In this document: in pieces, positions 392 through 64,000 of the stretch | Position numbering within the stretch: position 1 is the first letter of the stretch | Layout: each line of letters starts with the position of its first letter | The notes under the pieces: model-generated | What the model was told of the DNA's origin: nothing | The model's database searches: none | What the model saw: only the letters and a program-made list of their open reading frames with translations | Source: an uncultured virus (IMG/VR IMGVR_UViG_3300044730_000954) | Taxonomy: Duplodnaviria > Heunggongvirae > Uroviricota > Caudoviricetes | Length of the DNA stretch: 64,000 nucleotides | Virus record (IMG/VR): IMGVR_UViG_3300044730_000954 | Reading direction: 5' to 3' (one strand) | Program-made: the position numbers and the translations under genes

Positions 392-393
392 TT

Positions 394-425: not shown

Positions 426-444
426 CTAATCTTTAATTTGTTAA

Positions 445-1599: not shown

Positions 1600-1626
1600 T
1601 TTTCTCCTCGTATAATTCATTGTATT

Positions 1627-4318: not shown

Positions 4319-4320
4319 AT

Positions 4321-5996: not shown

Positions 5997-6023
5997 TATA
6001 ATCCTTTTTATCTATTATATCAT

Positions 6024-46315: not shown

Positions 46316-46903
46316 CTATTCGGAAAGATCCCCTACTGCTACCCACGTATTAGCAGCTCTTTTTATGATGGTAACAGCAGACCATTGAGATCTTAGTTTA
46401 AGGCCAGGTGTTCCATTTACAGTTGTTGTTCCTGGAGTTACTGCTGCAATTGTTATCTGTCCAGAGCCTGTTTGAAGAATATTTAATTGAGTGCCTATTG
46501 GAAAATTTGTAGTTGCATCCGTTGGTATTTGAAATGTTCCAGCAGTTGCGCCATTGCTTAACTCAAGCCATTTATCTTTATCTGTCAGTACTGCCGTATA
46601 AGCATTTGTAGTAAATGAGGGTGTAGAAATTATTAAATTAGATGATGAAAATTCTACCGCATTTGTTCCGTCGCCAACAATGATTTTATCATTAGTAGCA
46701 TCAAAGGCTATTCTTCCTGATGTTGTTGATGAAGTTGATGATAGCGTAAGTGTTGGAGTTGTGACGGTAGGAGAAGATAATGTTTTATTAGTTAGTGTTT
46801 GTGTAGCACTTTCAGTGACAACATTTTGATTATTTACGGTTGCGGTTGATCCCTCAACGACTAATCCGTTTTTTATACGAAAGTCTCTATTAGTAGTTGC
46901 CAC
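46316..46903 (-). CDS. Fibre/adaptor protein
   Basis: N-terminal FRIKNGLVVEG, TLTNKTL shaft motif, C-terminal FPIGTQ..WVAVGDL domain. Confidence 0.65.
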   Translation of the reverse strand: MATTNRDFRIKNGLVVEGSTATVNNQNVVTESATQTLTNKTLSSPTVTTPTLTLSSTSSTTSGRIAFDATNDKIIVGDGTNAVEFSSSNLIISTPSFTTNAYTAVLTDKDKWLELSNGATAGTFQIPTDATTNFPIGTQLNILQTGSGQITIAAVTPGTTTVNGTPGLKLRSQWSAVTIIKRAANTWVAVGDLSE

Positions 46904-46932
46904 TGAAGTTCACTATCCCCTCGTGGTTCACT

Positions 46933-49065
46933 TTACGCCTCTATTAGCGTTTTGTGTACCTTTACTGTTGTTGTTCCAGTTGCTGTTACTTTCAAACGAA
47001 CATTTCCGCTATCATAATCAGCATCTGTTGTACCAATTTGTGCATTACTTTGAATATCTGCATATTCAGTTAAATATACATTGTTATTTCCATCAATAGT
47101 CACTAGAACTTCTAGAACTTCAATATCATTACCATCCCGCATTTGCACAATATATTTTGCACTCTTATAGTTTGTTGCTGACCAAGAATCTACCACAGTA
47201 GCGCTTGTACCTGATAAGCTTGTGGTAGCAGTTCCTATTAAAGCATCTGTTAATATAATTGAACCTGCTGTTAACGATCCACTGCCAACTGATAAGCCAG
47301 CAAAAGTTGGGCTAGATGTTGACGCAATACTTTGTGGAAGTGACAGTGTTACTGATCCAGTAGATGTATTTGCTGAAACTTGATCAGCAGTTCCAGCAAT
47401 ACTTGTTACACCAGTATTTCCAATTGTAAGGATATTGCTTGTTGATGCATATGAAACACTAATTCCTGTAGTAGATGTTACTGCATTACCAAATCCATCT
47501 ATAGCAGTTTCAATATCTGATGTAAATGCAACGGTACCTGTAGCATCTTTAAATGTAATTGTATTATCCTGTGTTGGATCTGTAAATGTTAAAGTTGTTT
47601 CGTGAGTATCGTTAGTTCCTTCAATTACAATATTATTATCAAGAACCAATAACCCAGAAATAGAAGGTGTTGTTAAAACTGGACTTGTTAATGTTTTATT
47701 ACTTAAAGATTGAACACTATTTAGATCAGCAGTAATGCTTGTATCTATAGTAAAAATGTTGCCAGTAAGAGTAAGTCCATTACCAGCTAAATATGTTCCA
47801 GCTCCTGAAAATTGTTGCCAAACAATAGCATCTGTTCCAATTGTTACACCAGTAGATGTTTGAACCCATCCAGTATTATCATTAACTGTACCGCCAGTTA
47901 CAAATGTAAAATCTCCACCATCAACTTCTGCGGATTGATCCATATCAGTAGCACGAGTAAGAACCCAATTAGTTGAAACTGAACCAATATCTGTTACTGT
48001 ATAAATACCATTTTGTAATTGAGATGTTTGATTTTTAACAAGAACTCTATCATTTGTATTTAAGGTAATTCCATCAATAACTAGTGCAGCCTGAGTTCCA
48101 CTATTAGTTAATGTAGCTCCAACACCAGATGTTCCATTAGAATATGTTGCAGTAAGATTAGATGTTGTTGCTGTTATGCTTGAAGGGTGTATATGAAGAC
48201 CTTGTGCAACATCATCAACATATTGCTTTGTAGCAGCTTGTAAAGGTTGTGATGGATCTGCATTAAGTGTAACAGTTCCTGGAAATGTAACTGAATTTGG
48301 AAGAGAAAGAGTTACTGCTCCAGTTGAAGTGCTTGCTGTAATTTGATTTGCAGTTCCAGAAACACTTGAAACTCCTCCAGAAGCATTAAATGAAAATGTT
48401 CCAGCAGTATCGTCATAGGTTATACTAATATTTGTTTGCGTACCACCAGCAATTGCTGTTGCAATAGTATCCTGTGCTGCTTCATTAAAATCCGTTACAT
48501 TTCCAGATGTGACTGAAATTGTATTACTTGTAGAGCTAATTGTTTTGTTTGTGAGAGTCTGTGATCCCGATGTTGTTGCAACTGTAGAATCAATTGCTAT
48601 TGTTACTGCAGAAGATCCATTATAAGAAGTTCCTGAAAGACCAGTTCCAATTGTTAGTGCATTTGGAGCAGCAGCAGTTATCGTTGTAGAACCTCCAAGA
48701 GAAACAGAGTTTCCATTTATAGTTACTGAAGAATTTGTTAATTTATCATTTGCAATAGATCCTGCAAGCATTGTATTTGTAACAGTTCCAGTATCTCCAT
48801 TTGTTATTACTGTTCCAGTAATGTTTGGTAAAGTAATTGTTCTATCTGCTGTTGGATCTGTAACTGTTAAAGTTGTTTCATAAGAATCTGGTGTGGTTCC
48901 TTCAAATATAATTCCATCTCCATCAATTATTGGAGATGTTAGTGTTTTATTAGTAACTGTGCTTGTGCTTGCTTCTGTAAGAACATTTGATCCATTTACA
49001 GTAGCAGATGAGCCTTCTACTACGAGGCCATTTTTAATTCTGAAGGCTTTGTCTACTGTTGCCAT
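46933..49065 (-). CDS. Thr/Ser-rich fibre protein
   Basis: TNKTL repeats, AATKQYVD, DRVLVKNQT..QNGIY..LTRATD fibre motifs. Confidence 0.75.
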   Translation of the reverse strand: MATVDKAFRIKNGLVVEGSSATVNGSNVLTEASTSTVTNKTLTSPIIDGDGIIFEGTTPDSYETTLTVTDPTADRTITLPNITGTVITNGDTGTVTNTMLAGSIANDKLTNSSVTINGNSVSLGGSTTITAAAPNALTIGTGLSGTSYNGSSAVTIAIDSTVATTSGSQTLTNKTISSTSNTISVTSGNVTDFNEAAQDTIATAIAGGTQTNISITYDDTAGTFSFNASGGVSSVSGTANQITASTSTGAVTLSLPNSVTFPGTVTLNADPSQPLQAATKQYVDDVAQGLHIHPSSITATTSNLTATYSNGTSGVGATLTNSGTQAALVIDGITLNTNDRVLVKNQTSQLQNGIYTVTDIGSVSTNWVLTRATDMDQSAEVDGGDFTFVTGGTVNDNTGWVQTSTGVTIGTDAIVWQQFSGAGTYLAGNGLTLTGNIFTIDTSITADLNSVQSLSNKTLTSPVLTTPSISGLLVLDNNIVIEGTNDTHETTLTFTDPTQDNTITFKDATGTVAFTSDIETAIDGFGNAVTSTTGISVSYASTSNILTIGNTGVTSIAGTADQVSANTSTGSVTLSLPQSIASTSSPTFAGLSVGSGSLTAGSIILTDALIGTATTSLSGTSATVVDSWSATNYKSAKYIVQMRDGNDIEVLEVLVTIDGNNNVYLTEYADIQSNAQIGTTDADYDSGNVRLKVTATGTTTVKVHKTLIEA

Positions 49066-49085
49066 TCTTTTCTCCTTATAAGGGT

Positions 49086-49523
49086 TTAAGCCTTCAAACC
49101 AGTTCGGTAAAACCTAATGGTTATAGGGCTAAGTGTTGGTGTCACCATCATGCTAATTGTACCAGAATTTAAACTGGCAGAAATACTTCCAACATCGCTA
49201 CCCCCGCTAGCGACAGAAGCAAACTCTGTTATATTTTGATTGGTACCATCAAAAACTATATTAATTTCACTACTCCTATATGAAAAACTAGCAGAATGGG
49301 ATAATTGAACCATATATTTAATAGTTCTCCAGGTAGATGTGTCTATTGTGTCAAATACTGTAGCCGACTCTATACCGTTGATTATTACGGAGTTGTTTCC
49401 ATCTGCTCCCAAAGCGTCAGCTCTAAAAGAGGTGGTATCAATTAGGTCAGCGTAGTCTTGGCCATTTGGTTTATCGCCAGTTTCAAATTTTGATTTTAGT
49501 TGATTAATTGGAATTATGGCCAT
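49086..49523 (-). CDS. Fibre anchor/adaptor protein
   Basis: LKSKFETGDKPNGQDYADLID; C-terminal domain shared with the 710-aa fibre. Confidence 0.6.
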   Translation of the reverse strand: MAIIPINQLKSKFETGDKPNGQDYADLIDTTSFRADALGADGNNSVIINGIESATVFDTIDTSTWRTIKYMVQLSHSASFSYRSSEINIVFDGTNQNITEFASVASGGSDVGSISASLNSGTISMMVTPTLSPITIRFYRTGLKA

Positions 49524-50751: not shown

Positions 50752-51408
50752 ATGAATAATGTTTGGATAGTAGTTCCAATCATTTCTAATAATGTAGATT
50801 TATCTGGTTTTGTAGAAAAATTTGCTGGTGGCTATACCGCCCCAGAATTCTATGAATCCGAGGTATTCAATCAAGAAACTAGAGAGATAGAAAAAAAGAG
50901 TATACCCCATCCTCATTTTGGAAAGTCTGGCCTTGATTTTTCAAATAAGATTATTTTTGTAAACACAAAGCCTAGTTATACAGAATATAACAATGTTGTA
51001 CATTTAGAAGATTTTGATGATATCAGCATATATCGTGCCTGGAATTTAGGAATTGATCATGCTGTATCCAATGGGGCAGAGTATGTTGTTTTGTTAAATG
51101 GAGTAATTGACTTTGATCCATTTGTAATTTTTGATTCATATAATGCCATAATTGAACAAGAAAAAGAACTAGTGAATATATTTGATGGTGCTGTTATGAT
51201 TTTATCTGCATCATCTTCATTAAGACCAGATAATCAGTTCCAGATTTGGTTTGGAGATAACGATTTATATCGTAGATCTGAATCAGTTTTGGGATATAGT
51301 AGATCTGACTATTTTAGATTAGATTACTTAATTGAACATAACAATGATGAAACATTTAATTCAATTGTTAAATCTGATGAATCTAAATATAATGCTAAGT
51401 GGAGCTAA
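50752..51408 (+). CDS. GT2-like glycosyltransferase (divergent)
   Basis: WIVVP, RAWNLGI..YVVLLN, WFGDNDLY; GGAGG SD. Confidence 0.65.
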   Translation: MNNVWIVVPIISNNVDLSGFVEKFAGGYTAPEFYESEVFNQETREIEKKSIPHPHFGKSGLDFSNKIIFVNTKPSYTEYNNVVHLEDFDDISIYRAWNLGIDHAVSNGAEYVVLLNGVIDFDPFVIFDSYNAIIEQEKELVNIFDGAVMILSASSSLRPDNQFQIWFGDNDLYRRSESVLGYSRSDYFRLDYLIEHNNDETFNSIVKSDESKYNAKWS

Positions 51409-52363
51409 TTTTTTCAAATAGTTCGTTCCACTCTTTTGCTCTTAATTCCCAAGAGTAGTTTTCATTATAAAAATCAGATTGTTTTTGTAGTTTATTCTGT
51501 GTTGATATAGACCAATAATTATCTATTTCTTCATTAAGTACCTTCGCATATGCTGGAATAAAAGTCTCTGGAACTGCCTGCATTGGCATTAGCCTTGCAT
51601 ATTCTGATCCAGTTTCATATAGCGCTCCTAAATTTGTAGTAACCATACGACAGCCAGCAGCTCCTGCTTCAACCATAGCCAAGCAGCATGTTTCTTCAAA
51701 TGTACTTGGATATGCAAATATATGTGCTTCTTGTAAAGCCTTTTTAATGATATCATTTGTTGCATATCCCATATAATTAACATTTTTCATGTTACGAGCT
51801 ATTTCAAAATGTTCTTCATATACCCCGTTGGTATGAGCCTCATATCCTGTTCCATACATTTTTGCAGAAGAATATATATCCAATTCAACATCATCTCTAT
51901 TTAACATTTCAAATGCTGGAAGAAGCATATCTAGTCCACGAAATGGAGCTGATGTATAAATAAGTTTTAATTTTCCATCTTTAGTTTTTGGTTTAAATTC
52001 AATTGGCTCTATTGCATTTTTTATTACATAAGCATTTTCAAGTGGAATCCTAAATACCCAACGATACTTTTCATGTTGCCAATTTGATACATATACAAAT
52101 GAATTAATAGCATTCATAAAAGATGGGTCTGTATACCCTGGCCTTAATGACTCATCACTGTGTGCCAAATGCTGCCATAATAAATTCTTTTTTGTATATT
52201 TAATGTTTTTAAAGTATGGATTAGACAATACTATATTTATATCTTCATGTTCTTTTATATTTGTATATTTATATAGGCCATGTTTTAATATTTCTGTACC
52301 ACCCATTGGTGGCATAACATCATCCTTATTTATAGAGTCTGATGTTTTTTGTAACCAATCCAT
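51395..52363 (-). CDS. GT4 (GT-B) glycosyltransferase
   Basis: GGTE, VYVSNW, IYTSAPFRGL, YPSTFEETCCLAMVEA (EX7E). Confidence 0.88.
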   Translation of the reverse strand: MDWLQKTSDSINKDDVMPPMGGTEILKHGLYKYTNIKEHEDINIVLSNPYFKNIKYTKKNLLWQHLAHSDESLRPGYTDPSFMNAINSFVYVSNWQHEKYRWVFRIPLENAYVIKNAIEPIEFKPKTKDGKLKLIYTSAPFRGLDMLLPAFEMLNRDDVELDIYSSAKMYGTGYEAHTNGVYEEHFEIARNMKNVNYMGYATNDIIKKALQEAHIFAYPSTFEETCCLAMVEAGAAGCRMVTTNLGALYETGSEYARLMPMQAVPETFIPAYAKVLNEEIDNYWSISTQNKLQKQSDFYNENYSWELRAKEWNELFEKISST

Positions 52364-52371
52364 ATTAACCC

Positions 52372-53094
52372 CTAGTTGTATGTTTTTTTCTGCCAAAACT
52401 GTTGTTTATAAGAACGAACAATTTTTGATTTTAATAAAAAACCATTTTTAAGATTTTCATTTTCATTAAACTCTACTTTTTCACTTTTCCAGTCTTCTCT
52501 TTTAAAAGGAATAACTTGACATATTGGTGTTCCTTTTTCAAGAATAAAAATATCTTTATCAATTACAGAATCAAGCAACTGAAATGGAAGTTCTACTCCA
52601 AGCTTATACATATCAGTATCAACTACTCCAGAGAATGTTCTGAATGGTAGATCGTGTCTGTTTAATGGATGAGTAAACAAAGTACTATATCCTTTTGGAG
52701 TAATAATTCTCCAGCCTGGTCTCCATTTAAGAAGACTTGGTGATCCACCAAATGGTGCTGGAATACCTGGAGCCTGATCTGGTCCATGTTGCCCTATAAA
52801 ATTAACATTTGTAGCCCAACGAACATTGATCATTCCATTATTATTTTTTCTAAACTCCATATCAAAAGGCAGTTCAAAAATATATCCAGAACTTAATGCA
52901 TCAAGAAATGGAGAACACCCCTTTAATGTAAGATTGCTAACTGCAACACCATCTTTTGATAAGCCATCAATTTTTTCATTGTCCATTCTTGTTGGCATAT
53001 CTTTATACCACTCAGGAATTACTTGAACTGCTGGTTTTGGAATTTCAAATAAAAGTTCTGATTCTTTATCAAATGGTTCAAATTGAATTTTCAT
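52372..53094 (-). CDS. dUTPase-fold-like (DUF6065-type) protein
   Basis: PEWYK..KGCSPFLDALSSGY..SGVVDTD..KGTPICQVIP. Confidence 0.55.
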   Translation of the reverse strand: MKIQFEPFDKESELLFEIPKPAVQVIPEWYKDMPTRMDNEKIDGLSKDGVAVSNLTLKGCSPFLDALSSGYIFELPFDMEFRKNNNGMINVRWATNVNFIGQHGPDQAPGIPAPFGGSPSLLKWRPGWRIITPKGYSTLFTHPLNRHDLPFRTFSGVVDTDMYKLGVELPFQLLDSVIDKDIFILEKGTPICQVIPFKREDWKSEKVEFNENENLKNGFLLKSKIVRSYKQQFWQKKTYN

Positions 53095-53798
53095 TGACTA
53101 CCCATTTCTGGATACCTTTTTTGTAATATGTCCAACCAGTATAACTTAAAAGTTTTTTGATGCGTTACCCTAATTTTAGGATCTACCCAAATATCAAAAC
53201 CACAATTAATTGCTTTTGTACACCAAGAAAGATCTTCACCTATTAATATAAATTCAGGATTTGTTTCTTTATTTTCATCAGTATTTGGAATAGGTACTGG
53301 ACCAAACCATGGTCGTGGCATCTTTTCAAATACCCCCTGTTTAACTGCTAAAAATCCAAAACCAGCACCAGCAACTTTAAAAGGTTCTTTCTTTTCAAGA
53401 AGCATTTTTTCTGGCATCATTCCACCTCGTGGTTGATTATAGATAGGAACATGACGATCTTCCATTAAATAACAGCCAGAGATAATATCTTTTTCAGAAT
53501 TATATAATCCAAAAAAATCTGCTGGTTCCCATTCTATATCAGAGTCAATCCAAATAATTTTATCGTATGTCCATTCACCACTACATGGTTCTGTCATTTT
53601 TACATTATTTGTATCCCAACCACCAATTGTAGATTCTCTTGCCATTGCAACTAGTGAGCCACCCTGATTCAAAAAGTTCCATGTAAGACCTTCTTGATTC
53701 AAAATATAGGTTGTTTTTAAAATACTTCTCATATATCCAGGAGTAAAGCTGTTTCCTGGAGTAGCTATTACTACATTAAAGTGTGGTTTATTACTCAT
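53091..53798 (-). CDS. GT-A fold glycosyltransferase
   Basis: VIATP, WIDSDI (DxD), GFGF, GEDLSWC, H near C-terminus. Confidence 0.8.
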   Translation of the reverse strand: MSNKPHFNVVIATPGNSFTPGYMRSILKTTYILNQEGLTWNFLNQGGSLVAMARESTIGGWDTNNVKMTEPCSGEWTYDKIIWIDSDIEWEPADFFGLYNSEKDIISGCYLMEDRHVPIYNQPRGGMMPEKMLLEKKEPFKVAGAGFGFLAVKQGVFEKMPRPWFGPVPIPNTDENKETNPEFILIGEDLSWCTKAINCGFDIWVDPKIRVTHQKTFKLYWLDILQKRYPEMGSQ

Positions 53799-54471
53799 AT
53801 TTTTCTAGCTTTACCCTAACTTTTTTATAATGTGAAAGTCTAATTGTTGGATCTAAATATATCTTAAATCCTGACTGCGTTGCTTTTTTGCACCAAGAAA
53901 AATCTTCTCCATACGGAATAAAAATTTCTTTTTCATTATTTTCTGATGCCATTCTTTCAAATAAAGATTCAAACCATGGTCTTTTCATATTTTCAAATAC
54001 GCCAGACTTCATTGCAATAAAACCAAATCCAGCAGCAAATATTTCTTCTTCATTATTGCTTTTAAGAATTCTGTCAATTTCTTTTGCTGCATCATTAGAT
54101 GCAACAGAAAACATAGGCGTCATTTTTTCATTAAAATATAGCCCAGATACTATATCTTTTTCTGACTTATATAATTTTATAAAATCTTCAACTTCCCAGC
54201 CAATATCGGAATCAATCCAAATAATTTTATCGTATGTTACTGCACCACGAGCGGGTACATTATTAAATGGATCTAAATATGTATCTCCCATGGCAGTTGC
54301 TTCTCTAGCAGAACTAACCATTGATGAATATTGATTTAAAAACATGTATGTAATATTATTATCATGCAGGTATGAAATAGTATTTATTAGGCTTTTTACA
54401 TACTCTGCTTCCATATTTCTACCTGGTGTAGCTATTAGTATATTAATATGTTGTTTCAATTTTTCCCCCAT
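53791..54471 (-). CDS. GT-A fold glycosyltransferase, paralog of the downstream gene
   Basis: LIATP, WIDSDI, GFGF, GEDFSWC; start moved to leaderless ATG 54471. Confidence 0.8.
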   Translation of the reverse strand: MGEKLKQHINILIATPGRNMEAEYVKSLINTISYLHDNNITYMFLNQYSSMVSSAREATAMGDTYLDPFNNVPARGAVTYDKIIWIDSDIGWEVEDFIKLYKSEKDIVSGLYFNEKMTPMFSVASNDAAKEIDRILKSNNEEEIFAAGFGFIAMKSGVFENMKRPWFESLFERMASENNEKEIFIPYGEDFSWCKKATQSGFKIYLDPTIRLSHYKKVRVKLEKYE

Positions 54472-54477
54472 ATATCT

Positions 54478-54486
54478 ATTATAGCA
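54478..54486 (-). promoter_or_regulatory. Extended -10 promoter TGCTATAAT, leaderless spacing
   Basis: 6 nt before ATG 54471. Confidence 0.7.
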
Positions 54487-54506
54487 AAGATATTTTTTTT
54501 GTAAAG

Positions 54507-57500
54507 TTATATAACTTTTACATCTTTTATAGTATCTGTTGATATTGGTAGTGATAAAGTAGTCCAAGAAGTTCCATTTGTAGATACATAAGCACCGTAT
54601 TCTGTATTTACACTTGAATATCCAGTTTGTCCTTGTATACCGCCAAATACCCAAAGATTATTTCCATATACTATTGAATTAATTGTTGATCTATAATTAG
54701 AAATACGGGTAGTCCATGAAACATTATCAGTTGATACACGTATTTGACCTAAATCTCCTACCGCTGTATAAAAACTATTTCCATAAGATACTGCTAAAAT
54801 ATTTGTAGTTGCAAAATTAGAAGTTTGAGTATTCCATGTTATAGCATCCGTTGAAGTTCTAATTTGACCTGCATCTCCTACTGCAATCCATATATTATTT
54901 ATATAAGAAACTGAGTCTATATTAGTATTTCCAAAGTTGGAGGTTTGGGTAGTCCATGTAATAGTATCTGTGGAAGTTCTAATTGGCTCATTTTGCCCAT
55001 ATGACAACCAAAGTCCACTACCATACGAAATATAATATGGTTTTGTACTTGTAAAATTAACTTGTGGGGTTGTCCATGTTATAGCATCTGTTGAACTTAT
55101 AATACTAAATTTATTAGTTGATGATTGAATTTTTCCTTCAAAACCTCCTGTTACTAACGTGTTATTTCCATACACTACTGTATTTATTTGAGAATAATTA
55201 AAGTTATTGTTTACAGTAGTCCATGTAATAGCATCTGTTGAGGTGCGAATTTGGCCTGTTGCTCCACCTGCTACCCAAAGGCTATTGCCATAGGCTATTG
55301 AGTTGATAAGTGTAGTTCCAAAGTTTGAGGTTCGGGTAGTCCATGTAATAGCGTCTGTTGAGGTGCGGAGTTGGCCTGTATCGCCAACTGCTACCCATAG
55401 ATTATTTCCGTAGGCTATTGAGTTAATTTGTGTATTTCCAAAGTTTGAGGTTCGGGTAGTCCATGTAATAGCATCTGTTGAGGTGCGGAGTTGGCCTGTA
55501 GTACCACCTGCTACCCATAGGCTGTTGTCATAGGCTATTGAGTTAATTTGTGTATTTCCAAAGTTGGAGGTTCGGGTGGTCCATGTAGTAGCATCTGTTG
55601 AGGTGCGGAGTTGGCCTGTAGTACCACCTGCTACCCATAGATTATTGCCGTAGGCTATTGAGTTAATCGCTGTAGTTCCAAAGTTGGAGGTTCGGGTGGT
55701 CCATGTAGTAGCATCTGTTGAGGTGCGGATTTGGCCTGATTGTCCACCTGCTACCCATAGGCTATTGCCGTAGGCTATTGACTGAATTGTTGTATTTCCA
55801 AAGTTGGAGGTTTGAGTGGTCCATGTAATAGTATCTGTTGAGGTGCGGATTTGGCCTGTATTGCCACCTGCTACCCATAGGCTATTGCCGTAGGCTATTG
55901 AAAATATAGTTGTATTTCCAAAGTTAGAGGTTGGCTCGTTCCATGTAGATAAATATTCTTGAGATCCAGAAGCTACCCATAAACTATTGCCATAATCTAT
56001 TGATAATATTGAATCTATTACATAATTGGATGTTCTGGTAGTCCAAGATATAGCATCTGTTGAAGTACGCAATGCACCGTTGCTTCCTCCTGCTACCCAC
56101 AAATTATTTTTATATATAGTTGATAACATATTTGAACCTACAAAATTACTTTGTCTACTTGTCCATGTTATTAAGTCTGTTGAAGTTTTTAAATTGAAAT
56201 TATTAAATGATGATCTTAGTTGTCCTATTGTATTGCCCAATATAAAGATATTATTAGCATATGCTACTGACAAAATTGATGATGAATCTAAGTTTGGTAT
56301 TCCAGTAATCCATGTAGTAGCATCTGTTGAGGTGCGGAGTTGGCCCAGTGCTCCACCTGCTACCCATAGGCTATTGCCATAGGCTATTGAGTTGATTTGT
56401 GTATTTCCAAAGTTGGAGGTTTGAGTGGTCCATGTAATAGCATCTGTTGAGGTGCGGAGTTGGCCTGTCAAGCCACCTGCTACCCATAGGCTATTGCCGT
56501 AGGCTATTGAGTTAATCGCTGTAGTTCCAAAGTTGGAGGTTCGGGTGGTCCATGTAGTAGCATCTGTTGAGGTGCGGAGTTGGCCTGAATTGCCACCTGC
56601 TACCCAAAGGCTATTGTCATAGGCTATTGAGTTGATTTGTGTAGTTCCAAAGTTGGAGGTTCGGGTGGTCCATGTAGTAGCATCTGTTGAGGTGCGGATT
56701 TGGCCTGTATTGCCACCTGCTACCCATAGGCTGTTGCCGTAGGCTATTGAGTTAATTATTGTAGTTCCAAAGTTGGAGGTTACAGTGGTCCATGTAGTAC
56801 CGTCTGTTGAGGTGCGGAGTTGGCCTAAACTACCACCTACTACAAATAAACTATTACCGTAGGCTATTGATAAAATTGCTCCAGATGTAAAGTTGGAAGT
56901 TCGGGTGATCCATGTAATAGTATCTGTTGAGGTGCGGATTTGTTGTCCAGATCCAGCTGCTACCCATAGATTATTGCCGTAGGTTATTGAGTAAATTATT
57001 GAAGTTCCAAAGTTGGAGGTTCGGGTGGTCCATGTAACGCCAGTAGATAATTCTGGGCCACTTGAAGCAAGAAAAAGTCCATTTCCATATTTTATTACAA
57101 CTGGATCTGTAGTACCAAATCCAGTACTAAAAGTAGTCCATGTAAGTGGATCTCTTTTATCTACAATCATTGCATAAGAATTGTTGTTGTATGATATATT
57201 TTTTATATTTCCTATTTGTCCAGTATTATAATATAAATTAACATCTAAGGTGGGATCATATCTATATATATACCCGTTATTTGTTGCTACAACATTATTA
57301 TCTAAAGATGTAGTAAAAGATTTTTCATTACCAGGAATATAAATAAAAGCTCCACTAGTGGATAAGTCTCTTGCTATTACAAATATTCCATTTCCATAAG
57401 CAACTGATTGATTAATTATAGAGTTATTATTTTCACGACTATACGTTGGGACTGTAATCCATGTAATACCATCTGTTGTGTATGCAATTAAATTTTTACC

Positions 57501-60500
57501 ACCTACAGCAAAAAATAAACCATTTGCATAAGTAATTGATGTTATATCTCCATATTCAATAAGTTGATTTGGTGAATTCCCTGATACTGTTGTAGTCCAT
57601 GTAACGAGGTCTGTTGATTTTCTAATTTTTGGGTCAGTTCCTGAATACTGACTTGCTAACCAAAAATCATTACCATAAGATATTGCATCTATAGATATAC
57701 TTGTTTGGGTAGTCCATGTAATAGCGTCTGTTGAGGTGCGGAGTGGGCCAGAAGGTGCATTACTGATTGCTACCCATAGGCTATTGCCGTAGGCTATTGA
57801 GCTGATTTGTGTATTTCCAAAGTTGGAGGTTTGAGTGGTCCATGTAATAGTATCTGTTGATGTGCGGAGTTGGCCTGAATTGCCACCTGCTACCCATAGA
57901 CTATTGCCGTAGGCTATTGACTGAATTGTTGTATTTCCAAAGTTGGAGGTTTGGGTAGTCCATGTAATAGCATCTGTTGAGGTGCGGAGTTGGCCTGAAT
58001 TGCCACCTGCTACCCATAGATTATTGCCGTAGGCTATTGAGTTAATTGTTGTATTTCCAAAGTTGGAGGTTCGGGTAGTCCATGTAATAGCGTCTGTTGA
58101 AGTATATATTATAGATTGATTATCTGAACCTATCACCCATAGACCATTTCCGTATGCCACACACAAACCACTTACTACTTTATCAATTGATATAGTATTA
58201 ATATATTGTTGATCAATAAATCCATTATTTTCATAACTATAGTATGAAAAACTACCATCTATAAAGTTAATTTTATTATCTCTACCTTTACTAGCACTAA
58301 GAATAGATTCAAATGGTTTAGAAATCTGTGATTTTAATATTAAATCTGATGCACCAACATATATATATCCATTAGCATAGCAAATAGCACTTAAGGTACA
58401 TTCTCTATATCCAGCATCTGTTTTAGATGTTTGTGTTACCCAAGTCATCAGATCAGTTGAAGTTTTTAAACCAAAATATATACTATTATCTATTGAATAA
58501 TAAATGTTATTTGCATAGTAAAGTTTTGAAGACCTATTGTTTATTTTTGTTGTCCAGGTAATTGCGTCTGTTGAGGTGCGGATTTGGCCTAGAGTTCCAG
58601 TAGTAGCACCTGCTACCCATAAGTTGTTAACATATATTATTGAGTTAATCTGATGACCTCCACTAAAGTTTGAGGTTTGGGTGGTCCATGTAGTAGCGTC
58701 TGTTGAGGTGCGGAGTTGGCCTATGTTGCCACCTGCTACCCATAGGCTGTTGCCATAGGCTATTGAGTTGATAGGTGTAGTTCCAAAGTTGGAGGTTACA
58801 GTGGTCCATGTAGTACCGTCTGTTGAGGTGCGGAGTTGGCCTGACTCACCACCTGCTACCCATAGGCTGTTGCCATAGGCTATTGAGTTGATAGGTGTAG
58901 TTCCAAAGTTGGAGGTTCGGGTGGTCCATGTAGTACCGTCTGTTGAGGTGCGGAGTTGGCCTGAATTGCCACCTGCTACCCATAGATTATTTCCGTAGGC
59001 TATTGAGTTAATTGTATTTCCAAAGTTGGAGGTTCGGGTGGTCCAAGTTATGCCGTCTGTTGAAGTAGATAAAAATCCACCGCCCCCTGAAGCTATAAAT
59101 AAACCATTTTCATAGATTATTGAACTAACTTGATACTTAATAGCTGATGACCAACTAAGACTTGTTGTTGTCCAAATATAGTTACCGTATACAGCATTAA
59201 AATTACCTACACTATTAATTCTATTATATGATTCTGCCACAAATCCATTGTTTCCAGATATTAATGTAAGTCCATTCTGACTTGTAATATTTTTTGTACT
59301 GTCCTGAGTTGCAGTAGATAATGAAGTAAAAGCACCGTGATTAATAGATGCTGTTGTCCATGTGTCTAAATTTGTAGAATATTTTGTTAAGTCTCCAGTT
59401 GATGATGAAATAAAAGAAAAATTATCAGATGCCATTTCGGCGAATTGAATTCCAGAATTATTACTAGAGTCAACTGATACAATTTTATTATTTCCATAAA
59501 CTAATGTACCGCCAGTGCTAATTAATTGTTTAGTTGTTTCGGTAGTCCATGTAATACCGTCTGTTGAACTTTGCAAAAGAGTATTACTTGCAAAAACATC
59601 AAGTGCCAATACCCATAAATTATTAGCATAAAGTATCTTGTCAACTGAACCTGTGTTGCCTAATGGGGTTACAGTAGTCCATGTAATACCGTCTGTTGAC
59701 CTTCTTAACATAGGTGTTATACTTGAAAGACCACCACCTGCTAACCATAAACTGTTACCGTAGGCTACTGACAATATAGTTGAAGTTCCAAAGTTTGAGG
59801 TTCGGGTAGTCCATGTAATAGTATCTGTTGAGGTGCGGAGTTGGCCTGAATTGCCACCTGCTACCCATAGATTATTTCCGTAGGCTATTGAGTTAATTGT
59901 ATTTCCAAAGTTGGAGGTTCGGGTGGTCCATGTAATAGCGTCTGTTGATGTGCGGATTTGGCCATTATCGCCAACTGCTACCCAAAGGCTATTGCCGTAG
60001 GCTATTGAGTTGATTTGTGTATTTCCAAAGTTGGAGGTTTGAGTGGTCCATGTAATGGTATCTGTTGAGGTGCGGAGTTGGCCTGTATTGCCACCTGCTA
60101 CCCATAGGCTGTTGCCGTAGGCTATTGAGTTGATAAGTGTAGTTCCAAAACCAAAATTTGTAGTAGTGGCAGTGTTCCATATAATTCCATCTGTTGAAGT
60201 AACAGAAGTGCCAACGCTAGATGTTTGTCTAGCTTGAGCTATAAAAAATCCATTTCCATAAGCAGCTGTGGATTCAAATCCAATTAATCCAAAGTCATTT
60301 TGTGAGCCAAGTTGCCAAGTTAAAGGATTTAAATAATTATTTACTTGATAAACAGCATTTATATTTGAAGATCCAAATCCTGAATCTATAGTTGTCCATG
60401 TAGTTTGGTTGGTAGATAAATAAAATAAATTATTATTACCCCCGACTAATGTAAGAGATCCTGATGGTATTGTTCCATATGTTGATGAAGTTACTGCTTG

Positions 60501-60677
60501 ATCTAATGTACCGTCAAAAATATTATTTAATGAATAACCTGCTGAAATATTAGTAGTAAATGTTGATAGATCTCCTGTTGTAGATCTTAATGTACCGTCG
60601 CTATTTGCAAAAAATATTTTCTTAAGGAAGCCCGATGCTGTGCTTATTGCGCTTGCAATAATTCCTAATATTGGCAT
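54507..60677 (-). CDS. 2056-aa multi-beta-propeller (BNR/Asp-box) protein, probable adhesin/receptor-binding appendage
   Basis: ~40-aa blades ending STDxxTW; N-terminal MPILGIIAS peptide. Confidence 0.8.
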   Translation of the reverse strand: MPILGIIASAISTASGFLKKIFFANSDGTLRSTTGDLSTFTTNISAGYSLNNIFDGTLDQAVTSSTYGTIPSGSLTLVGGNNNLFYLSTNQTTWTTIDSGFGSSNINAVYQVNNYLNPLTWQLGSQNDFGLIGFESTAAYGNGFFIAQARQTSSVGTSVTSTDGIIWNTATTTNFGFGTTLINSIAYGNSLWVAGGNTGQLRTSTDTITWTTQTSNFGNTQINSIAYGNSLWVAVGDNGQIRTSTDAITWTTRTSNFGNTINSIAYGNNLWVAGGNSGQLRTSTDTITWTTRTSNFGTSTILSVAYGNSLWLAGGGLSSITPMLRRSTDGITWTTVTPLGNTGSVDKILYANNLWVLALDVFASNTLLQSSTDGITWTTETTKQLISTGGTLVYGNNKIVSVDSSNNSGIQFAEMASDNFSFISSSTGDLTKYSTNLDTWTTASINHGAFTSLSTATQDSTKNITSQNGLTLISGNNGFVAESYNRINSVGNFNAVYGNYIWTTTSLSWSSAIKYQVSSIIYENGLFIASGGGGFLSTSTDGITWTTRTSNFGNTINSIAYGNNLWVAGGNSGQLRTSTDGTTWTTRTSNFGTTPINSIAYGNSLWVAGGESGQLRTSTDGTTWTTVTSNFGTTPINSIAYGNSLWVAGGNIGQLRTSTDATTWTTQTSNFSGGHQINSIIYVNNLWVAGATTGTLGQIRTSTDAITWTTKINNRSSKLYYANNIYYSIDNSIYFGLKTSTDLMTWVTQTSKTDAGYRECTLSAICYANGYIYVGASDLILKSQISKPFESILSASKGRDNKINFIDGSFSYYSYENNGFIDQQYINTISIDKVVSGLCVAYGNGLWVIGSDNQSIIYTSTDAITWTTRTSNFGNTTINSIAYGNNLWVAGGNSGQLRTSTDAITWTTQTSNFGNTTIQSIAYGNSLWVAGGNSGQLRTSTDTITWTTQTSNFGNTQISSIAYGNSLWVAISNAPSGPLRTSTDAITWTTQTSISIDAISYGNDFWLASQYSGTDPKIRKSTDLVTWTTTVSGNSPNQLIEYGDITSITYANGLFFAVGGKNLIAYTTDGITWITVPTYSRENNNSIINQSVAYGNGIFVIARDLSTSGAFIYIPGNEKSFTTSLDNNVVATNNGYIYRYDPTLDVNLYYNTGQIGNIKNISYNNNSYAMIVDKRDPLTWTTFSTGFGTTDPVVIKYGNGLFLASSGPELSTGVTWTTRTSNFGTSIIYSITYGNNLWVAAGSGQQIRTSTDTITWITRTSNFTSGAILSIAYGNSLFVVGGSLGQLRTSTDGTTWTTVTSNFGTTIINSIAYGNSLWVAGGNTGQIRTSTDATTWTTRTSNFGTTQINSIAYDNSLWVAGGNSGQLRTSTDATTWTTRTSNFGTTAINSIAYGNSLWVAGGLTGQLRTSTDAITWTTQTSNFGNTQINSIAYGNSLWVAGGALGQLRTSTDATTWITGIPNLDSSSILSVAYANNIFILGNTIGQLRSSFNNFNLKTSTDLITWTSRQSNFVGSNMLSTIYKNNLWVAGGSNGALRTSTDAISWTTRTSNYVIDSILSIDYGNSLWVASGSQEYLSTWNEPTSNFGNTTIFSIAYGNSLWVAGGNTGQIRTSTDTITWTTQTSNFGNTTIQSIAYGNSLWVAGGQSGQIRTSTDATTWTTRTSNFGTTAINSIAYGNNLWVAGGTTGQLRTSTDATTWTTRTSNFGNTQINSIAYDNSLWVAGGTTGQLRTSTDAITWTTRTSNFGNTQINSIAYGNNLWVAVGDTGQLRTSTDAITWTTRTSNFGTTLINSIAYGNSLWVAGGATGQIRTSTDAITWTTVNNNFNYSQINTVVYGNNTLVTGGFEGKIQSSTNKFSIISSTDAITWTTPQVNFTSTKPYYISYGSGLWLSYGQNEPIRTSTDTITWTTQTSNFGNTNIDSVSYINNIWIAVGDAGQIRTSTDAITWNTQTSNFATTNILAVSYGNSFYTAVGDLGQIRVSTDNVSWTTRISNYRSTINSIVYGNNLWVFGGIQGQTGYSSVNTEYGAYVSTNGTSWTTLSLPISTDTIKDVKVI
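55215..60150. repeat. Coding 120-nt repeats, about 23 near-canonical units in five blocks
   Basis: Recurrent + strand core tctgttgaggtgcggagttggcc...ccacctgctacccatag...taggctattgag...ttccaaagttggagg. Confidence 0.95.
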
Positions 60678-60800: not shown

Positions 60801-60849
60801 AGGTGTATGACACCGTTTATGGTGTCATATGCATTTTAGGAGGAAAAAC

Positions 60850-61401
60850 TTGAAAAACAATAAAATGCTTGTAGGGATAATCAGTAGTGCGATTTTATTT
60901 ACTCATCTTTTTGGGGCTATACCGTCGCATGCCACTGATAATGGTTTGTCTAAACAGGGGCTTGTAGTGATTGCCACCCCCGAGGTGGCTTTTCTGCTTT
61001 CTGAAGACAAAAATAAAAAAATACTGAGCAAGTATGAAAATGCGACAAGTTTGACTGACAGCCAGTTGGTTGAATTACTTAAGGCGGTAGGGTTCAAAGG
61101 AAAAGCTTTAAAGACTGCTTGGGCAGTTGCCAAGGCTGAATCCAATGGTCGTCCATTTGCTTTTAATGGAAACACCAATACTGGAGATTCCTCTTACGGT
61201 ATCTTTCAGATTAATATGTTAGGAACTTTAGGTCCAGACAGACGAGACAGGTTTGAGATTGATCTAAATGCTGAATTGTTTAGTCCAGTAACTAACGCAG
61301 AAATTGTCTATCATATGACAAAAGGCGGGGTAGACTGGAGTTCATGGTCATCTTTCAACAAAGGTGCTCATTATAAATGGCTAAATAAGTTTCCTAATTA
61401 A
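60850..61401 (+). CDS. Secreted lysozyme-like lytic transglycosylase
   Basis: Signal peptide ending PSHA; AWAVAKAESNG..GDSSYGIFQIN..WSSW; TTG start 6 nt after AGGAGG. Confidence 0.85.
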   Translation: MKNNKMLVGIISSAILFTHLFGAIPSHATDNGLSKQGLVVIATPEVAFLLSEDKNKKILSKYENATSLTDSQLVELLKAVGFKGKALKTAWAVAKAESNGRPFAFNGNTNTGDSSYGIFQINMLGTLGPDRRDRFEIDLNAELFSPVTNAEIVYHMTKGGVDWSSWSSFNKGAHYKWLNKFPN

Positions 61402-61406
61402 ATAAT

Positions 61407-61434
61407 ATAGCCCTATATTAATTTATAGGGCTAT
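61407..61434. terminator. Bidirectional hairpin between convergent genes
   Basis: ATAGCCCTATA-TTAATT-TATAGGGCTAT, perfect 11-bp stem. Confidence 0.75.
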
Positions 61435-62393
61435 TCTTTAATATTATTATCTTTTAAATATTTATAATAATTATTTTTAATAAAATAAAAATCTAATCCA
61501 AGTTCTATACAAAAGTCTTTAAAAGTTCTTTGTACATCATGTATATAAAATCTTGTATTTTTGGAATTAAATAAAAATTTATAAAAATCTGGCTTAAAAA
61601 TTATGTGGTCTTTATCCTTTTCTGATAGAACTTTAAATGTTTTATCACTAAAGTTTTTTGATCCATATACAAGTTCGTTATATTCTTCATTGTTATGAGA
61701 TAAATAGTTATACCCTAAAATTGCATAAGTATCATAACCCCTTATATAAGAAAAAATACTATCAACATACTCTTCTGTAAAAAAATCAGAATACGAATCA
61801 AAAGAACCATCTGTTATAAATGTATTATCTGAAAAAATAAATTGACCAGTTATATATTGAGTTTTAGCAAAATCACCAATAATTTCAATATTTTTAAATT
61901 TTGATATTTCTCTTTGCTCACTGCCTATTCCTAAAAAATTATACCCCGAATTATTGTTTATGTAAAATGAAGTAACACTGTTTTTTTCTTCTTCATTTTC
62001 TTTCCCAATATGTCTTGTTAAAAATTTAGAAATAATAACCTTATCTTTACCAGTTATTTGTTTTAACTCATTAAATTTTTTAATTAAATTAATATCACAG
62101 TTTTTTTCAAAAAACATATGAGAGTCTATTTGCAAAAAATAATCTTGATTACGCATTAATTTTCTTAATATGTACCTAATACGAACAACGCCAGGTCTGT
62201 TTTTAGCATTTAAATTTAATAATGATAAATTTTCTGTTTTAATAAAAGAAAAATCTGGAATTTTTATTTTTTCATTTTGAACTGCTATTCCAAAATATAA
62301 ATTTTCAGGATACAGAGCATTATCTATAGCAGATTTAACTGTTCTTTCTAAAAAAGGGTCTTCGTATGATGCAATAGATACATATATGGACAC
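61431..62393 (-). CDS. GT60-like (Skp1-hydroxyproline GlcNAc-transferase-type) glycosyltransferase
   Basis: IYVSIASYEDP..TV..A..PENLYFGI..Q, YFLQIDSHMFF, FFTEE..S....RGYD. Confidence 0.75.
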   Translation of the reverse strand: MSIYVSIASYEDPFLERTVKSAIDNALYPENLYFGIAVQNEKIKIPDFSFIKTENLSLLNLNAKNRPGVVRIRYILRKLMRNQDYFLQIDSHMFFEKNCDINLIKKFNELKQITGKDKVIISKFLTRHIGKENEEEKNSVTSFYINNNSGYNFLGIGSEQREISKFKNIEIIGDFAKTQYITGQFIFSDNTFITDGSFDSYSDFFTEEYVDSIFSYIRGYDTYAILGYNYLSHNNEEYNELVYGSKNFSDKTFKVLSEKDKDHIIFKPDFYKFLFNSKNTRFYIHDVQRTFKDFCIELGLDFYFIKNNYYKYLKDNNIKE

Positions 62394-62394
62394 A

Positions 62395-63018
62395 TTACTC
62401 CGTTCCGTCTGACATTAACATATCATGTCTATTGTGAAACCAAGCTGGTATTGAGTATCTAGTTCCAGAAACGATATCCGATATTGTATGAACATACAAA
62501 AAGTTTGATGGGAATAAGACAACGCTTCCAGCTTTTGGTTTTATTGTTATATTTGAAATTGGAAAAGATATTTCTCCACCTTCATAATCGTCATTTAAAT
62601 ATATTAACACACTTAAGGCTCTTGTACTTACTCCATGATCTTGATGGGGAGGTAAAAATCCACCTTTAACATATTTTAATATATTTGGCCTTTCTCGCCC
62701 CTTTAAATTAGCTCTAGCAAATGTATACTCACTAAAGTACTCTTCTAGTGCTTTGTCTGCAATTAAGTTAATTTCATTTATTAAAAATAATTCTTCTTCA
62801 TAGTATTTATGATTTGTAAAAAGCTCTTCCTTGTTTTGTAGTCTTTTTTGATAACAAAATACACTGTTTTGTCCATCCACCCATGGATTCCAAATTGTTC
62901 CATTATTTTCTTGTTCACTTTTACTATTATAGTTTTCTAAGAATTCAATTATTTGATTTCCATTATTAAAAACATCCTCAACCATAATTAAACCAAGATC
63001 TAATTTTTTAGTTATCAT
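62395..63018 (-). CDS. Prolyl-4-hydroxylase-like 2OG-Fe(II) oxygenase
   Basis: HQD..IYLNDDYEGGE..FPS..H..GTRY; GGAGG SD supports ATG 63018. Confidence 0.88.
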   Translation of the reverse strand: MITKKLDLGLIMVEDVFNNGNQIIEFLENYNSKSEQENNGTIWNPWVDGQNSVFCYQKRLQNKEELFTNHKYYEEELFLINEINLIADKALEEYFSEYTFARANLKGRERPNILKYVKGGFLPPHQDHGVSTRALSVLIYLNDDYEGGEISFPISNITIKPKAGSVVLFPSNFLYVHTISDIVSGTRYSIPAWFHNRHDMLMSDGTE

Positions 63019-63574
63019 TTTTAGCCTCCAATATATCTGGATCTGCAAAAGCAATATCCGAGCAGTGATGAAATAAAAGTGTATATCTATGTCCGCTTGT
63101 TACCTTAGTAATTCCATGAATATAGGAAGAATTTTTTTGTGGAAATAAGACAGCGGAATATTTTACTGGAACATATTTAAAGTTTTTTTGTGGAAAATAT
63201 ATTACTCCACCTTCAAATTCTGGTGGCTCATTTAGATATATTACAGTACTCCACTGAATAAATGGTTCTTTTTCAATATCGTCAAGATGTGGCGGTCCTT
63301 CATTATCTGTTTCCCAATGCGAAGAATACCCTTTTGTTGCATAAATATTTTCATCTAAATTAAATAATTCTTGAATTTTTTTATTTGCTTTTTCTCCATA
63401 TTTTTTTAACATTGACACAGTAATTTTATTATATGGCAAAGCCGTTCCACCATTTCTATTATTATAAAACTCTGGATATGGGTTAAATTCAGAAGGATGA
63501 TTTATTTCATTTATAATGATTTGTGCATCTTCAGGTTCAATAAAATTTTCAATAATAAATATTTGATTGCTCAT
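63008..63574 (-). CDS. Prolyl-4-hydroxylase-like 2OG-Fe(II) oxygenase
   Basis: HLD..IYLN..FEGG..H..SGHRY. Confidence 0.88.
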   Translation of the reverse strand: MSNQIFIIENFIEPEDAQIIINEINHPSEFNPYPEFYNNRNGGTALPYNKITVSMLKKYGEKANKKIQELFNLDENIYATKGYSSHWETDNEGPPHLDDIEKEPFIQWSTVIYLNEPPEFEGGVIYFPQKNFKYVPVKYSAVLFPQKNSSYIHGITKVTSGHRYTLLFHHCSDIAFADPDILEAKNDN

Positions 63575-64000
63575 ATTCTACTCCCGTGGGTATAAAATCT
63601 ATCACGCTGTAATTCTCCTATTTGATGCCTTAAATATTCCACATCATTTAATTGATGATAATTTTTTTTAATAGGATTAATTAACGCATACTCTTTGAAA
63701 TTTCTTTGTAATCCAATAAGATTTATAAACTTATTGCTACCAGTATCATATAAGCTTTGAACTTGATCATAGTTATGAGTTTTAGAAAAAGGAATATAGT
63801 CGTGCTCTTTTTTATCTAAAATATTTATAATTTCTAGTAGACTATCTTCAAAATCATACCCATTGCAAAATGCCCTAATTGATAAATCTTCTTCTTCACC
63901 CATTAATCTAAGATAGTGAGGATATCCAAAAATATCAAGATCTTGTTTTTTAATAAAAGTACCATCTACTGAAAAACTATTTTTTATGCTTTTTATTTTG
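63571..64000 (-). CDS. 3' part of a second GT60/GT-A-like glycosyltransferase (starts beyond the window)
   Basis: Frame is open from 63999; YPHYLRLMGEEEDLSIRAFCNGYD matches the EE..S...GYD motif of the 61431 gene. Confidence 0.6.
   Translation of the reverse strand, partial: KIKSIKNSFSVDGTFIKKQDLDIFGYPHYLRLMGEEEDLSIRAFCNGYDFEDSLLEIINILDKKEHDYIPFSKTHNYDQVQSLYDTGSNKFINLIGLQRNFKEYALINPIKKNYHQLNDVEYLRHQIGELQRDRFYTHGSRI

Follow-up and report, generated by a model that had tools for sequence, protein, structure and literature searches.

A predicted tree of seven-bladed Asp-box rings nested within rings in a protein of an uncultured freshwater phage

The propeller gene and its blades

The stretch of DNA analysed here, called the window in what follows, comprises 64,000 nucleotides of an uncultured virus (IMG/VR record IMGVR_UViG_3300044730_000954), and its source is an uncultured freshwater (lake) phage with siphovirus-type (tape-measure) tail genes. 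The gene in question, P0001, is a single open reading frame (ORF) whose product is a long array of Asp-box blades of about 40 residues each, with the consensus TTQINSIAYGNSLWVAGGNTGQLRTSTDAITWTTRTSNFG and about 49 propeller blades in total. Its start codon is fixed by an N-terminus common to three relatives, P0003, P0008 and P0126, and an AAGGA motif lies about 12 nucleotides upstream of the ATG. Within a blade, INSIAY can be read as strand A, LWVAGG as strand B, GQLRTS as strand C and TWTT as strand D, with the S-T-D-x-x-T-W hairpin between C and D. Asp-box matches in P0001, spaced 38-44 residues apart, number 37 with a strict pattern and 38 with a looser one; a six-frame search of the window with S[TS][DN]..[TS]W gave 38 matches, 37 of them in the P0001 frame and the other one with a stop inside it. 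All 29 canonical blades have the same S, T, D and W, and the array carries the motif of the Asp-box superfamily. In the same 29 blades the most variable positions are 3, 5, 19 and 20 of the blade hidden Markov model (HMM), which lie in the D-A and B-C turns. In general propeller topology the D-A and B-C loops are found on one face of each ring.

DUF6242 is the sole Pfam family reached by P0001 (33.7 bits against a cut-off of 29, E = 4.3e-08, 12 stretches), and the nearest ESM Atlas clusters are viral DUF6242_C proteins of about 300 residues. Relatives are labelled 'PSII stability/assembly factor-like' in their sources. A scan of P0001 against NCBIfam gave no match, the PSII_BNR profile gave none at E <= 1, which does not place the protein in the Ycf48/HCF136 family, and neither a WD40 match in Pfam nor a glycosidase family match in Pfam, NCBIfam or PHROG was obtained. 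Searches of PDB sequences returned weak matches to the designed Ika8/Ika4 proteins only, or none.

Seven-blade units and their junctions

The chain was parsed with a position-specific scoring matrix (PSSM) for the A-B half of the blade and another for the C-D half, and then with two blade HMMs, the first built from P0001 blades and the second from 263 distinct blades of P0001 and its homologues; both HMMs agree. An earlier note on this DNA, made from the sequence alone, had described six groups of seven Asp-box blades (residues 117-415, 500-784, 825-1116, 1176-2022, 1213-1490 and 1577-1853), and this independent parse coincides with it to within a few residues. The six unit groups, G1 to G6, measure 281-302 residues (Table 1). 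Unit G4 spans residues 1176-2022 with G5 and G6 inside its limits, and once these are excised its three parent pieces sum to 282 residues with six Asp-boxes.

A unit begins with a single D strand that no S-x-D precedes, continues with six complete blades and ends with an A-B-C without a following Asp-box. In G5, G6 and the G4 parent, six full blades precede a closing blade that lacks the Asp-box; G1, G2 and G3 have six blades each by HMM and a divergent closing blade, found by HMM as an A-B fragment in G3 and recognised by eye only in G1 and G2. There are six Asp-boxes in each of G2, G3, G5, G6 and the G4 parent, five in G1 and three in the leftover pieces of the chain. Asp-box propellers, as characterised in the pertinent parts of a survey of the superfamily (PMC2716378), have an SxDxGxTW hairpin, a repeat of about 40 residues, a 1+3 velcro closure and at most n-1 Asp-boxes per n blades; the units of P0001, as parsed, appear to close in the same 1+3 manner and stay within that number of boxes. 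The G4 parent is 52-54% identical to G5 and G6, with 9-10 gap columns, and G5 is 74% identical to G6. Blade-by-blade nucleotide identity between units showed no clear diagonal, and orthology at the level of units is unreadable because the blades are homogenised.

Matches to the A-B and C-D matrices alternate along the chain except in a few places, as where the A-B at 1556-1571 is directly followed by another A-B at 1590-1605. Three blades lack 4-6 HMM positions of strand C, namely 1158-1188 (positions 20-25 missing), 1194-1224 (20, 24, 25 and 28) and 1557-1587 (25-30), and three others carry an insertion of 9-11 residues after strand C, namely 1466-1512 (9 residues, at HMM position 24), 1829-1875 (9 residues) and 1997-2040 (11 residues). 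At the former, the entries, strands A-B of a host blade run straight into the D strand of a guest; at the latter, the exits, the closing A-B-C of the guest is followed by a second C strand (C') with an Asp-box and a D strand, which would belong to the host blade. The mid-blade interruptions that had been proposed, of G4 by G5 and G6 and of a further blade by G4, are borne out by these deletions and insertions at the junctions.

The order of the junctions can be written in brackets: '(' stands for a short blade, ')' for a long one and 'o' for a normal one, and a closed bracket counts as one unit. In this notation the C-terminal 900 residues read ((oooooo)o(oooooo)ooo), which is balanced and has six units per bracket, a property of 51 of the 1,492,260 orderings of three entries, three exits and 16 plain blades (3.4e-5). 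Removal of G5 and G6 leaves, in order, D; A-B; C'-D; a whole blade; A-B; C'-D; three whole blades; and A-B-C, which make seven complete blades; if the halves of G4 are not joined across the inserts, four two-stranded half-blades are left unpaired. Nested re-pairing of the half-blades raises the blade-HMM score in six of six cases: A-B 1189-1208 joined to C'-D 1494-1512 gives 42.9 bits against 26.0 as the sequence stands, and a second example 55.8 against 26.3.

Table 1. Features of the propeller gene and of the genes for candidate docking partners. Positions are those of the window, except for the last six rows, where they refer to the locus named; residues are numbered along P0001. S1 to S7 denote putative blade-like elements of the scaffold.
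Feature	Position	Strand	Residues	Remarks
Whole propeller gene P0001	54507..60677	-		single ORF, 2056 aa + stop
Putative docking peptide MPILGIIAS...	60618..60677 (nonapeptide 60651-60677)	-	1-20	
Scaffold piece 1	60333..60677	-	1-115	putative hub blades S1, S2 and strand A of S3
Unit G1	59427..60332	-	116-417	302 aa, 7 blades, 5 Asp-boxes
Scaffold piece 2	59184..59426	-	418-498	putative rest of S3 and S4
Unit G2	58329..59183	-	499-783	285 aa, 6 Asp-boxes
Scaffold piece 3	58203..58328	-	784-825	weak alignment with P0126 446-479 (score 26)
Unit G3	57327..58202	-	826-1117	292 aa, 6 Asp-boxes
Scaffold piece 4	57153..57326	-	1118-1175	putative S6 and strands A-B of S7 (G4 entry)
G4 parent piece a	57042..57152	-	1176-1212	opening D, A-B of blade 1, G5 entry
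Unit G5	56199..57041	-	1213-1493	281 aa, 6 Asp-boxes, predicted in G4 blade 1
G4 parent piece b	55962..56198	-	1494-1572	C'-D of blade 1, blade 2, A-B of blade 3
Unit G6	55110..55961	-	1573-1856	284 aa, 6 Asp-boxes, predicted in G4 blade 3
G4 parent piece c	54612..55109	-	1857-2022	C'-D of blade 3, blades 4-6, closing A-B-C
Scaffold piece 5	54510..54611	-	2023-2056	putative C'-D of S7 and conserved C-terminal strand
Promoter-like TTTACA-16-TATAAT	54478..54505	-		directly past P0001 stop; 11/12 consensus positions, upstream TG; consensus match only
Upstream gene with phrog_21978/8780/21510 domain, L003	5895-6998			
Upstream gene with phrog_21978/8780/21510 domain, L005	7029-7895			
Upstream gene with phrog_21978/8780/21510 domain, L010	6585-6998			
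Upstream gene with phrog_21978/8780/21510 domain, L075	7029-7838			
Upstream gene with phrog_21978/8780/21510 domain, L031	7029-7754			
Upstream gene with phrog_21978/8780/21510 domain, L009	7029-9008			

Relatives with and without the inserted units

The closest homologues of P0001 are only 31-40% identical to it. Full-length relatives with the common N-terminus (MPILGII...) are P0003 (1476 residues), P0008 (2019) and P0126 (854), and the N- and C-terminal strands are conserved in these and P0001, the four full-length members; P0155 (627 residues) has the N-terminus too and its C-terminus looks cut, and P0220 and P0222 are fragments. The full lengths of the family amount to about three, five and seven unit lengths, with two, four or six plug-in units carried. 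P0126 and P0003 were aligned locally, by scaffold pieces, and global long-gap alignments of P0126, P0003 and P0008 against P0001 were left unused because they are scrambled by cross-similarity of the repeats. IMG/VR scans with P0126 and P0003 found no further relatives, and a protein search specific to the scaffold returned P0126 itself only. The ESM Atlas contains no model of P0126 or P0003. The nearest virus record compared (G001) is without the gene, and another (G002) is a 5-kb fragment.

When homologues were compared for the presence or absence of exact inserts of about 280 residues, as the earlier note had suggested, P0003 proved to be without G5 and G6 exactly and P0126 without G1. P0003, exactly 580 residues shorter than P0001, is collinear with it over the whole length. 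Its G4 is a plain unit between conserved entry and exit, made up of D, six full blades and then an exit blade that carries an 11-residue insert; a full blade stands where P0001 has its shortened G4 blade 1. P0001 1-114 aligns with P0126 1-97, and P0001 414-446 with P0126 91-123 (score 73), so that S3, a single uninterrupted blade in P0126 (26.7 bits), is divided in P0001 by the 302-residue G1. Scaffold piece 4 aligns with P0126 493-549 (score 63) and P0003 1100-1155, and scaffold piece 5 with the C-termini of both proteins. The sequences on either side of G3 give weaker alignments (scores 26 and 63); between them P0126 has 13 residues and P0001 has 301, and G3 is probably absent from P0126.

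P0006, a protein of 1806 residues whose ends differ from those of P0001, gives the strongest comparison: its residues 273-1160 are 43.7% identical to P0001 1155-2045 in an alignment that has 53 gap columns and in which six of the six junctions are co-located. Its order reads ((oooooo)o(oooooo)oooN, with an excised parent of 285 residues and guests of 279 and 284 residues. Random indels would not be kept at six places at such a distance. Since P0006 carries the same triple module, G4(G5,G6) may have arrived whole and not by two separate insertions. The layout of P0094 is probably the same, except that its linkers are longer. Taken together, independent arguments from sequence give good support to the nesting predicted for G5 and G6 in G4, and for G1 and G4 in blade-like elements of the scaffold.

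Scaffold and proposed architecture

The residues left over by the units (1-115, 418-498, 784-825, 1118-1175 and 2023-2056) sum to 330, about the length of one unit. Residues 77-102 score 13.5 bits on the blade HMM without any joining, S3 when joined across G1 scores 15.1 bits over HMM positions 1-40, and S7 when joined across G4 scores 16.6 bits against 8.1 as the sequence stands. This scaffold would probably close into a seventh ring.

The explanation that we consider probable is that P0001 encodes a fibre-type binding protein made from seven-blade Asp-box rings nested in rings. In a velcro-closed unit both chain ends would meet at one hairpin position, so that the whole unit could be spliced into the hairpin of a blade of another unit. 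G5 and G6 would occupy the B-C hairpins of G4 blades 1 and 3, and G4 itself the B-C hairpin of S7, a blade-like element of a discontinuous scaffold of about 330 residues made of the termini and linkers. G1 would interrupt the scaffold blade S3, G2 and G3 would sit at two further scaffold sites, and the scaffold would close as the seventh ring, the hub. The protein would be hung on the tail by its N-terminal MPILGIIAS peptide, and the variable D-A and B-C loops may bind host surface glycans multivalently. The three-level tree of about seven propellers drawn in the earlier note stands where it places G5 and G6 in G4 and G4 in a blade-like element, as indicated by the bracket order, the 282-residue parent, the re-pairing, P0003 and P0006. 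Its view of the leftover pieces as degenerate blades holds for residues 77-102 as they stand and for S3 and S7 once joined; the S5-S7 stretch has no similarity to the blade profile.

Several observations weigh against this architecture. The pairing of strands across the inserts in space is deduced by sequence logic only; the cut points used for re-pairing were chosen by the authors, and other in-phase chimeras of a periodic array also score well. The 15.1 bits of S3 is an optimised value, the best of 176 junction choices scanned; comparison of the S5-S7 stretch with the blade profile gave no similarity (hhalign probability 0.2), and S1 and S4-S6 were undetected by the blade HMM. The strict signature is rare, being found in only P0001, P0006 and P0048 of the 229 homologues parsed, and ten innermost brackets after refinement have six clean blades in five (two in P0001, two in P0006 and one in P0048) and partial matches in five. 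An automated measure of junction conservation flagged 8 of 62 homologues; among the six flagged homologues viewed, P0006 and P0094 keep the junctions and P0007, P0190, P0103 and P0079 do not, and the measure was dropped because it was unreliable on this check by eye. P0001 units are 47-74% identical to one another and 37-47% identical to P0006 units at the same position, and no stepwise history is readable because there is no positional orthology between the units of the two proteins. No PHROG match was obtained for P0001 (E 1e-5), nor for P0126 or P0003 (E 1e-3), and P0001 lies outside the main tail module (16-31 kb), about 5 kb from the fibre-like genes at 46319-49523.

Part of this evidence would be accommodated if nesting were confined to G4(G5,G6), the termini and linkers being ordinary linkers or a small fold, and G1, G2, G3 and the triple module following one another in series. 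The lack of blade profile similarity in S5-S7, the failure of the HMM to detect S1 and S4-S6, and the weak alignment at the G3 site (score 26) are all in its favour. We nevertheless regard it as unlikely, because P0126 has a whole blade (26.7 bits) where the halves of P0001 flank the 302-residue G1, because the S7 halves around G4 are conserved in P0003 and P0126 and reach 16.6 bits when joined, because the scaffold sums to about one unit in both P0001 (330 residues) and P0126 (about 311 residues, with boundaries set by the authors), and because the N- and C-terminal strands are conserved in the four full-length members.

N-terminal peptide and predicted function

A degenerate DNA pattern search showed that MPILGIIAS heads at least 109 IMG/VR genes. 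The pattern was chosen by the authors, so that its sharing is by construction and the result lies in the diversity found behind the peptide. The parts that follow it are unrelated to one another and include Gly_rich_2, fn3 with Gly_rich_2, Laminin_G_3 (a ConA-like lectin), a Reg_prop-like propeller, a 296-residue single Asp-box propeller, a 184-residue domain and a sevenfold 'PWSAGFGTKYANP' repeat. In six of six loci annotated, the MPILGIIAS genes stand among tail tip or tail-fibre genes, and in six loci (Table 1) their ATG lies 2-3 nucleotides after a gene whose last 100 or so residues match phrog_21978, phrog_8780 or phrog_21510. The window has the same phrog_21978-type domain in a 195-residue ORF (46319-46903, minus strand), beside genes for a 710-residue fibre-like protein and a fibre-connector-like protein, and this domain is a candidate docking partner of MPILGIIAS. 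The peptide itself appears to be a universal docking element behind which fibre tips can be swapped. A reading of the N-terminus as a membrane helix was rejected, the residues after the motif being polar and variable in other MPILGIIAS proteins. The 184-residue domain ends in ...FALYGIK/R, and tblastn of its protein against phage records returned unannotated records only. The sevenfold repeat belongs to a 334-residue MPILGIIAS protein without a Pfam family (L037, 1896-2897, minus strand), with about seven near-identical repeats of about 47 residues, which is probably another recently amplified propeller type.

A conserved N-terminal part followed by a variable distal part is the pattern of tail fibres and receptor-binding proteins, and we infer that P0001 is a tail-fibre-type adhesin showing six or more binding faces. 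Phage DSL-LC01 (OQ999401; 8479-9351 of the locus L116) carries a free unit of 290 residues, with D, six blades and A-B-C, directly after two collagen-like fibre genes; given that position, its label of 'photosynthesis system II assembly factor' is probably misleading. A term search of the DSL-LC01 paper (PMC10611076) found the free-standing unit not mentioned. The MPILGIIAS start may serve as a marker for fibre-tip genes in uncultured freshwater phages.

It could be argued instead that P0001 is an enzyme or an auxiliary metabolic protein, either a glycosidase of the sialidase or GH74 type or a photosystem II assembly factor, and not a virion adhesin. Most characterised Asp-box propellers are glycosidases, according to the parts of the superfamily survey that treat them, and the K1F endosialidase is an Asp-box propeller (PMC2716378). 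Glycosyltransferase genes flank P0001, the assembly factor label of its relatives points the same way, and P0126 matches the F510_1955 glycosylhydrolase model weakly, with 36 bits where the cut-off is 175. Such a function is nonetheless improbable: P0001 reaches no enzyme family in Pfam, NCBIfam or PHROG and has no PSII_BNR match; near-identical blades with variation confined to two loop positions fit binding better than a single active site; the N-terminal peptide is common to lectin-type and glycine-rich fibre proteins; and the phage polymerase is closest to those of Streptomyces phages and not of cyanophages.

Sequential propellers and sequence integrity

The simplest arrangement would be one of consecutive propellers, like the GH74 tandems classed as 'type 3', in which the short and long blades are local indels. 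HMMER does read every entry blade with a deletion and every exit blade with an insertion, in the majority of homologues the blades follow one another over long stretches without interruption, the two extra-strand segments are empty in all 49 other rows of the alignment (A1), and tandem Asp-box propellers are a known type in the part of the survey devoted to their classification (PMC2716378). The linear count between closing blades is, however, 8, 9 and 4 and not 7, 7 and 7, and three- and five-stranded blades exactly one unit apart are left unexplained. The junctions have missing or extra strands, which is not the plain succession of blades of a GH74-type tandem; their bracket order has the low chance given above, they are kept in P0006 at 44% identity, and P0003 is short by exactly two unit lengths. 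We therefore hold a sequential arrangement to be very improbable, and retain the nested one.

That the whole pattern could come from misassembly of a highly repetitive region is scarcely credible, even though Logan contigs break at canonical repeats and each of seven joints inside the gene is carried by one contig, with 23-50 letters of repeat DNA on its sides, since, among independent assemblies, one IMG/VR record reproduces all 6171 nucleotides at 100% identity, two metagenome contigs reproduce nucleotides 1-4345 at 99.7% and 4109-6171 at 100%, long contig pieces from runs of three studies match the gene without a difference outside the repeats, and the frame is open for 2056 codons. The gene is not an assembly artefact. 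Because they are broken at repeats, the Logan contigs are uninformative on variants of unit number, and a raw-read run (X21) yielded no reads on the gene. At least 61% of the sampled words of the gene are present in 20 runs from 17 lake or freshwater studies, and the device would be ecologically relevant because the phage is so widespread.

Comparison with known propellers

Nested topology, with several seven-blade propellers in one chain, is shared by the triple WD40 clusters of the DDB1/CPSF160/SF3B3 type. In Trm734, as its chain is traced in the relevant part of the report on its crystal structure (PMC6847430), strand d7 of the propeller BPC comes first, followed by BPA as far as c7, BPB from d1 to c1, d7 of BPA and then the remainder of BPC; the inserted BPB starts with a strand d and ends with a strand c, between c7 and d7 of BPA. 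The predicted guests G4, G5 and G6 of P0001 have a similar D...C layout inside the host blade. The two proteins differ in that the blades are WD40 in Trm734 and Asp-box in P0001, and in that the insertions described for Trm734 are only at the closing (velcro) blade, whereas those of P0001 would lie at about four sites of the scaffold and, within G4, in the internal blades 1 and 3. Unlike Trm734, P0001 would have seven units on three levels with branching, and its number of units varies among relatives. Nested propellers per se are already known, as Trm734 shows, and, within the portions of the literature covered, the Asp-box, internal-blade and branched form would be new.

The classification of Asp-box propellers by Quistgaard and Thirup in 2009, in the portion that sets out types 1-4, includes a foreign domain between blades (type 2) and two seven-blade rings in tandem (type 3); it covers single rings, foreign inserted domains, tandems and interrupted tandems, and no ring within a ring appears in that portion (PMC2716378). 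In P0001, by comparison, the inserted domain would be a copy of the protein's own fold and the insertion recursive. DUF6242/DUF6242_C and Ycf48-like phage proteins are single rings, and P0001 has neither a PSII_BNR match nor a photosynthetic context. Propellers also stand at the binding end of tail spikes or fibres, one per chain in trimeric spikes, in phage host-recognition proteins such as the K1F endosialidase and the receptor-binding protein of phage phi11. The K1F propeller is a six-blade Asp-box propeller (PMC2716378), and the host-recognition device of phi11 is the subject of a paper of its own (PMC4901313); no sequence similarity of P0001 to the K1F endosialidase or the phi11 receptor-binding protein was found in PDB sequence searches. 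The remark in the earlier note that it knew of no described phage protein with this layout agrees with full-text literature searches, which returned nothing relevant, and a survey of highly repetitive propellers (PMC9218822) has no occurrence of 'nested', 'inserted' or 'phage'.

Propeller evolution has been described, in the sections of the two surveys that address it, as blade amplification and tandem duplication (PMC9218822, PMC2716378). Self-insertion of a fold over three branched levels, if true, would represent an uncommon route to a large protein. It would also give protein designers a natural example of closed repeat rings grafted through hairpins, and would be a compact display of at least six binding faces on one chain, gained or lost whole among relatives (854, 1476, 2019 or 2056 residues). 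It is possible, though we put it forward tentatively and with somewhat more doubt than confidence, that the rings are heritable plug-in cassettes moved by recombination into and out of the hairpins of other rings, including G4(G5,G6) as one cassette, that self-similar trees of three, five or seven rings are formed on a conserved hub, and that together with the MPILGIIAS peptide this amounts to a two-level re-tooling of host binding in lake phages.

Genome neighbourhood

The phage of the window has a GC content of about 35%. The window encodes a terminase, portal, protease, major head protein, a tape measure of 2319 residues and minor tail proteins, as well as a DnaE-type polymerase, a helicase and a ribonucleotide reductase. 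The DnaE-type polymerase is 54% identical to those of Streptomyces phages, which, and not cyanophages, are the closest annotated phages for this protein. A 1201-residue ORF (40491-44096, minus strand) between the portal and ribonucleotide reductase genes is without a Pfam, PHROG or NCBIfam match.

P0001 lies between glycosyltransferase and 2OG-Fe(II) oxygenase genes. Its flanks (51395-54470 and 61431-63999, minus strand) hold two glycosyltransferase genes (GT1 family; GlcNAc-type), two phrog_1574 paralogues, a phrog_7084 gene and the 2OG-Fe(II) oxygenase genes. The propeller loops of P0001 are rich in Thr and Ser. A lysozyme-like SLT_3 gene (60829-61401) is found on the strand opposite to P0001. 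An ORF listed at 53791-54654 (minus strand) with a TTG start overlaps the end of P0001, and its phrog_1574 match begins at residue 67. Judging from the promoter-like site (Table 1), the ATG at 54471 and the start of this match, the true start is probably that ATG, which would leave no overlap with the propeller gene.

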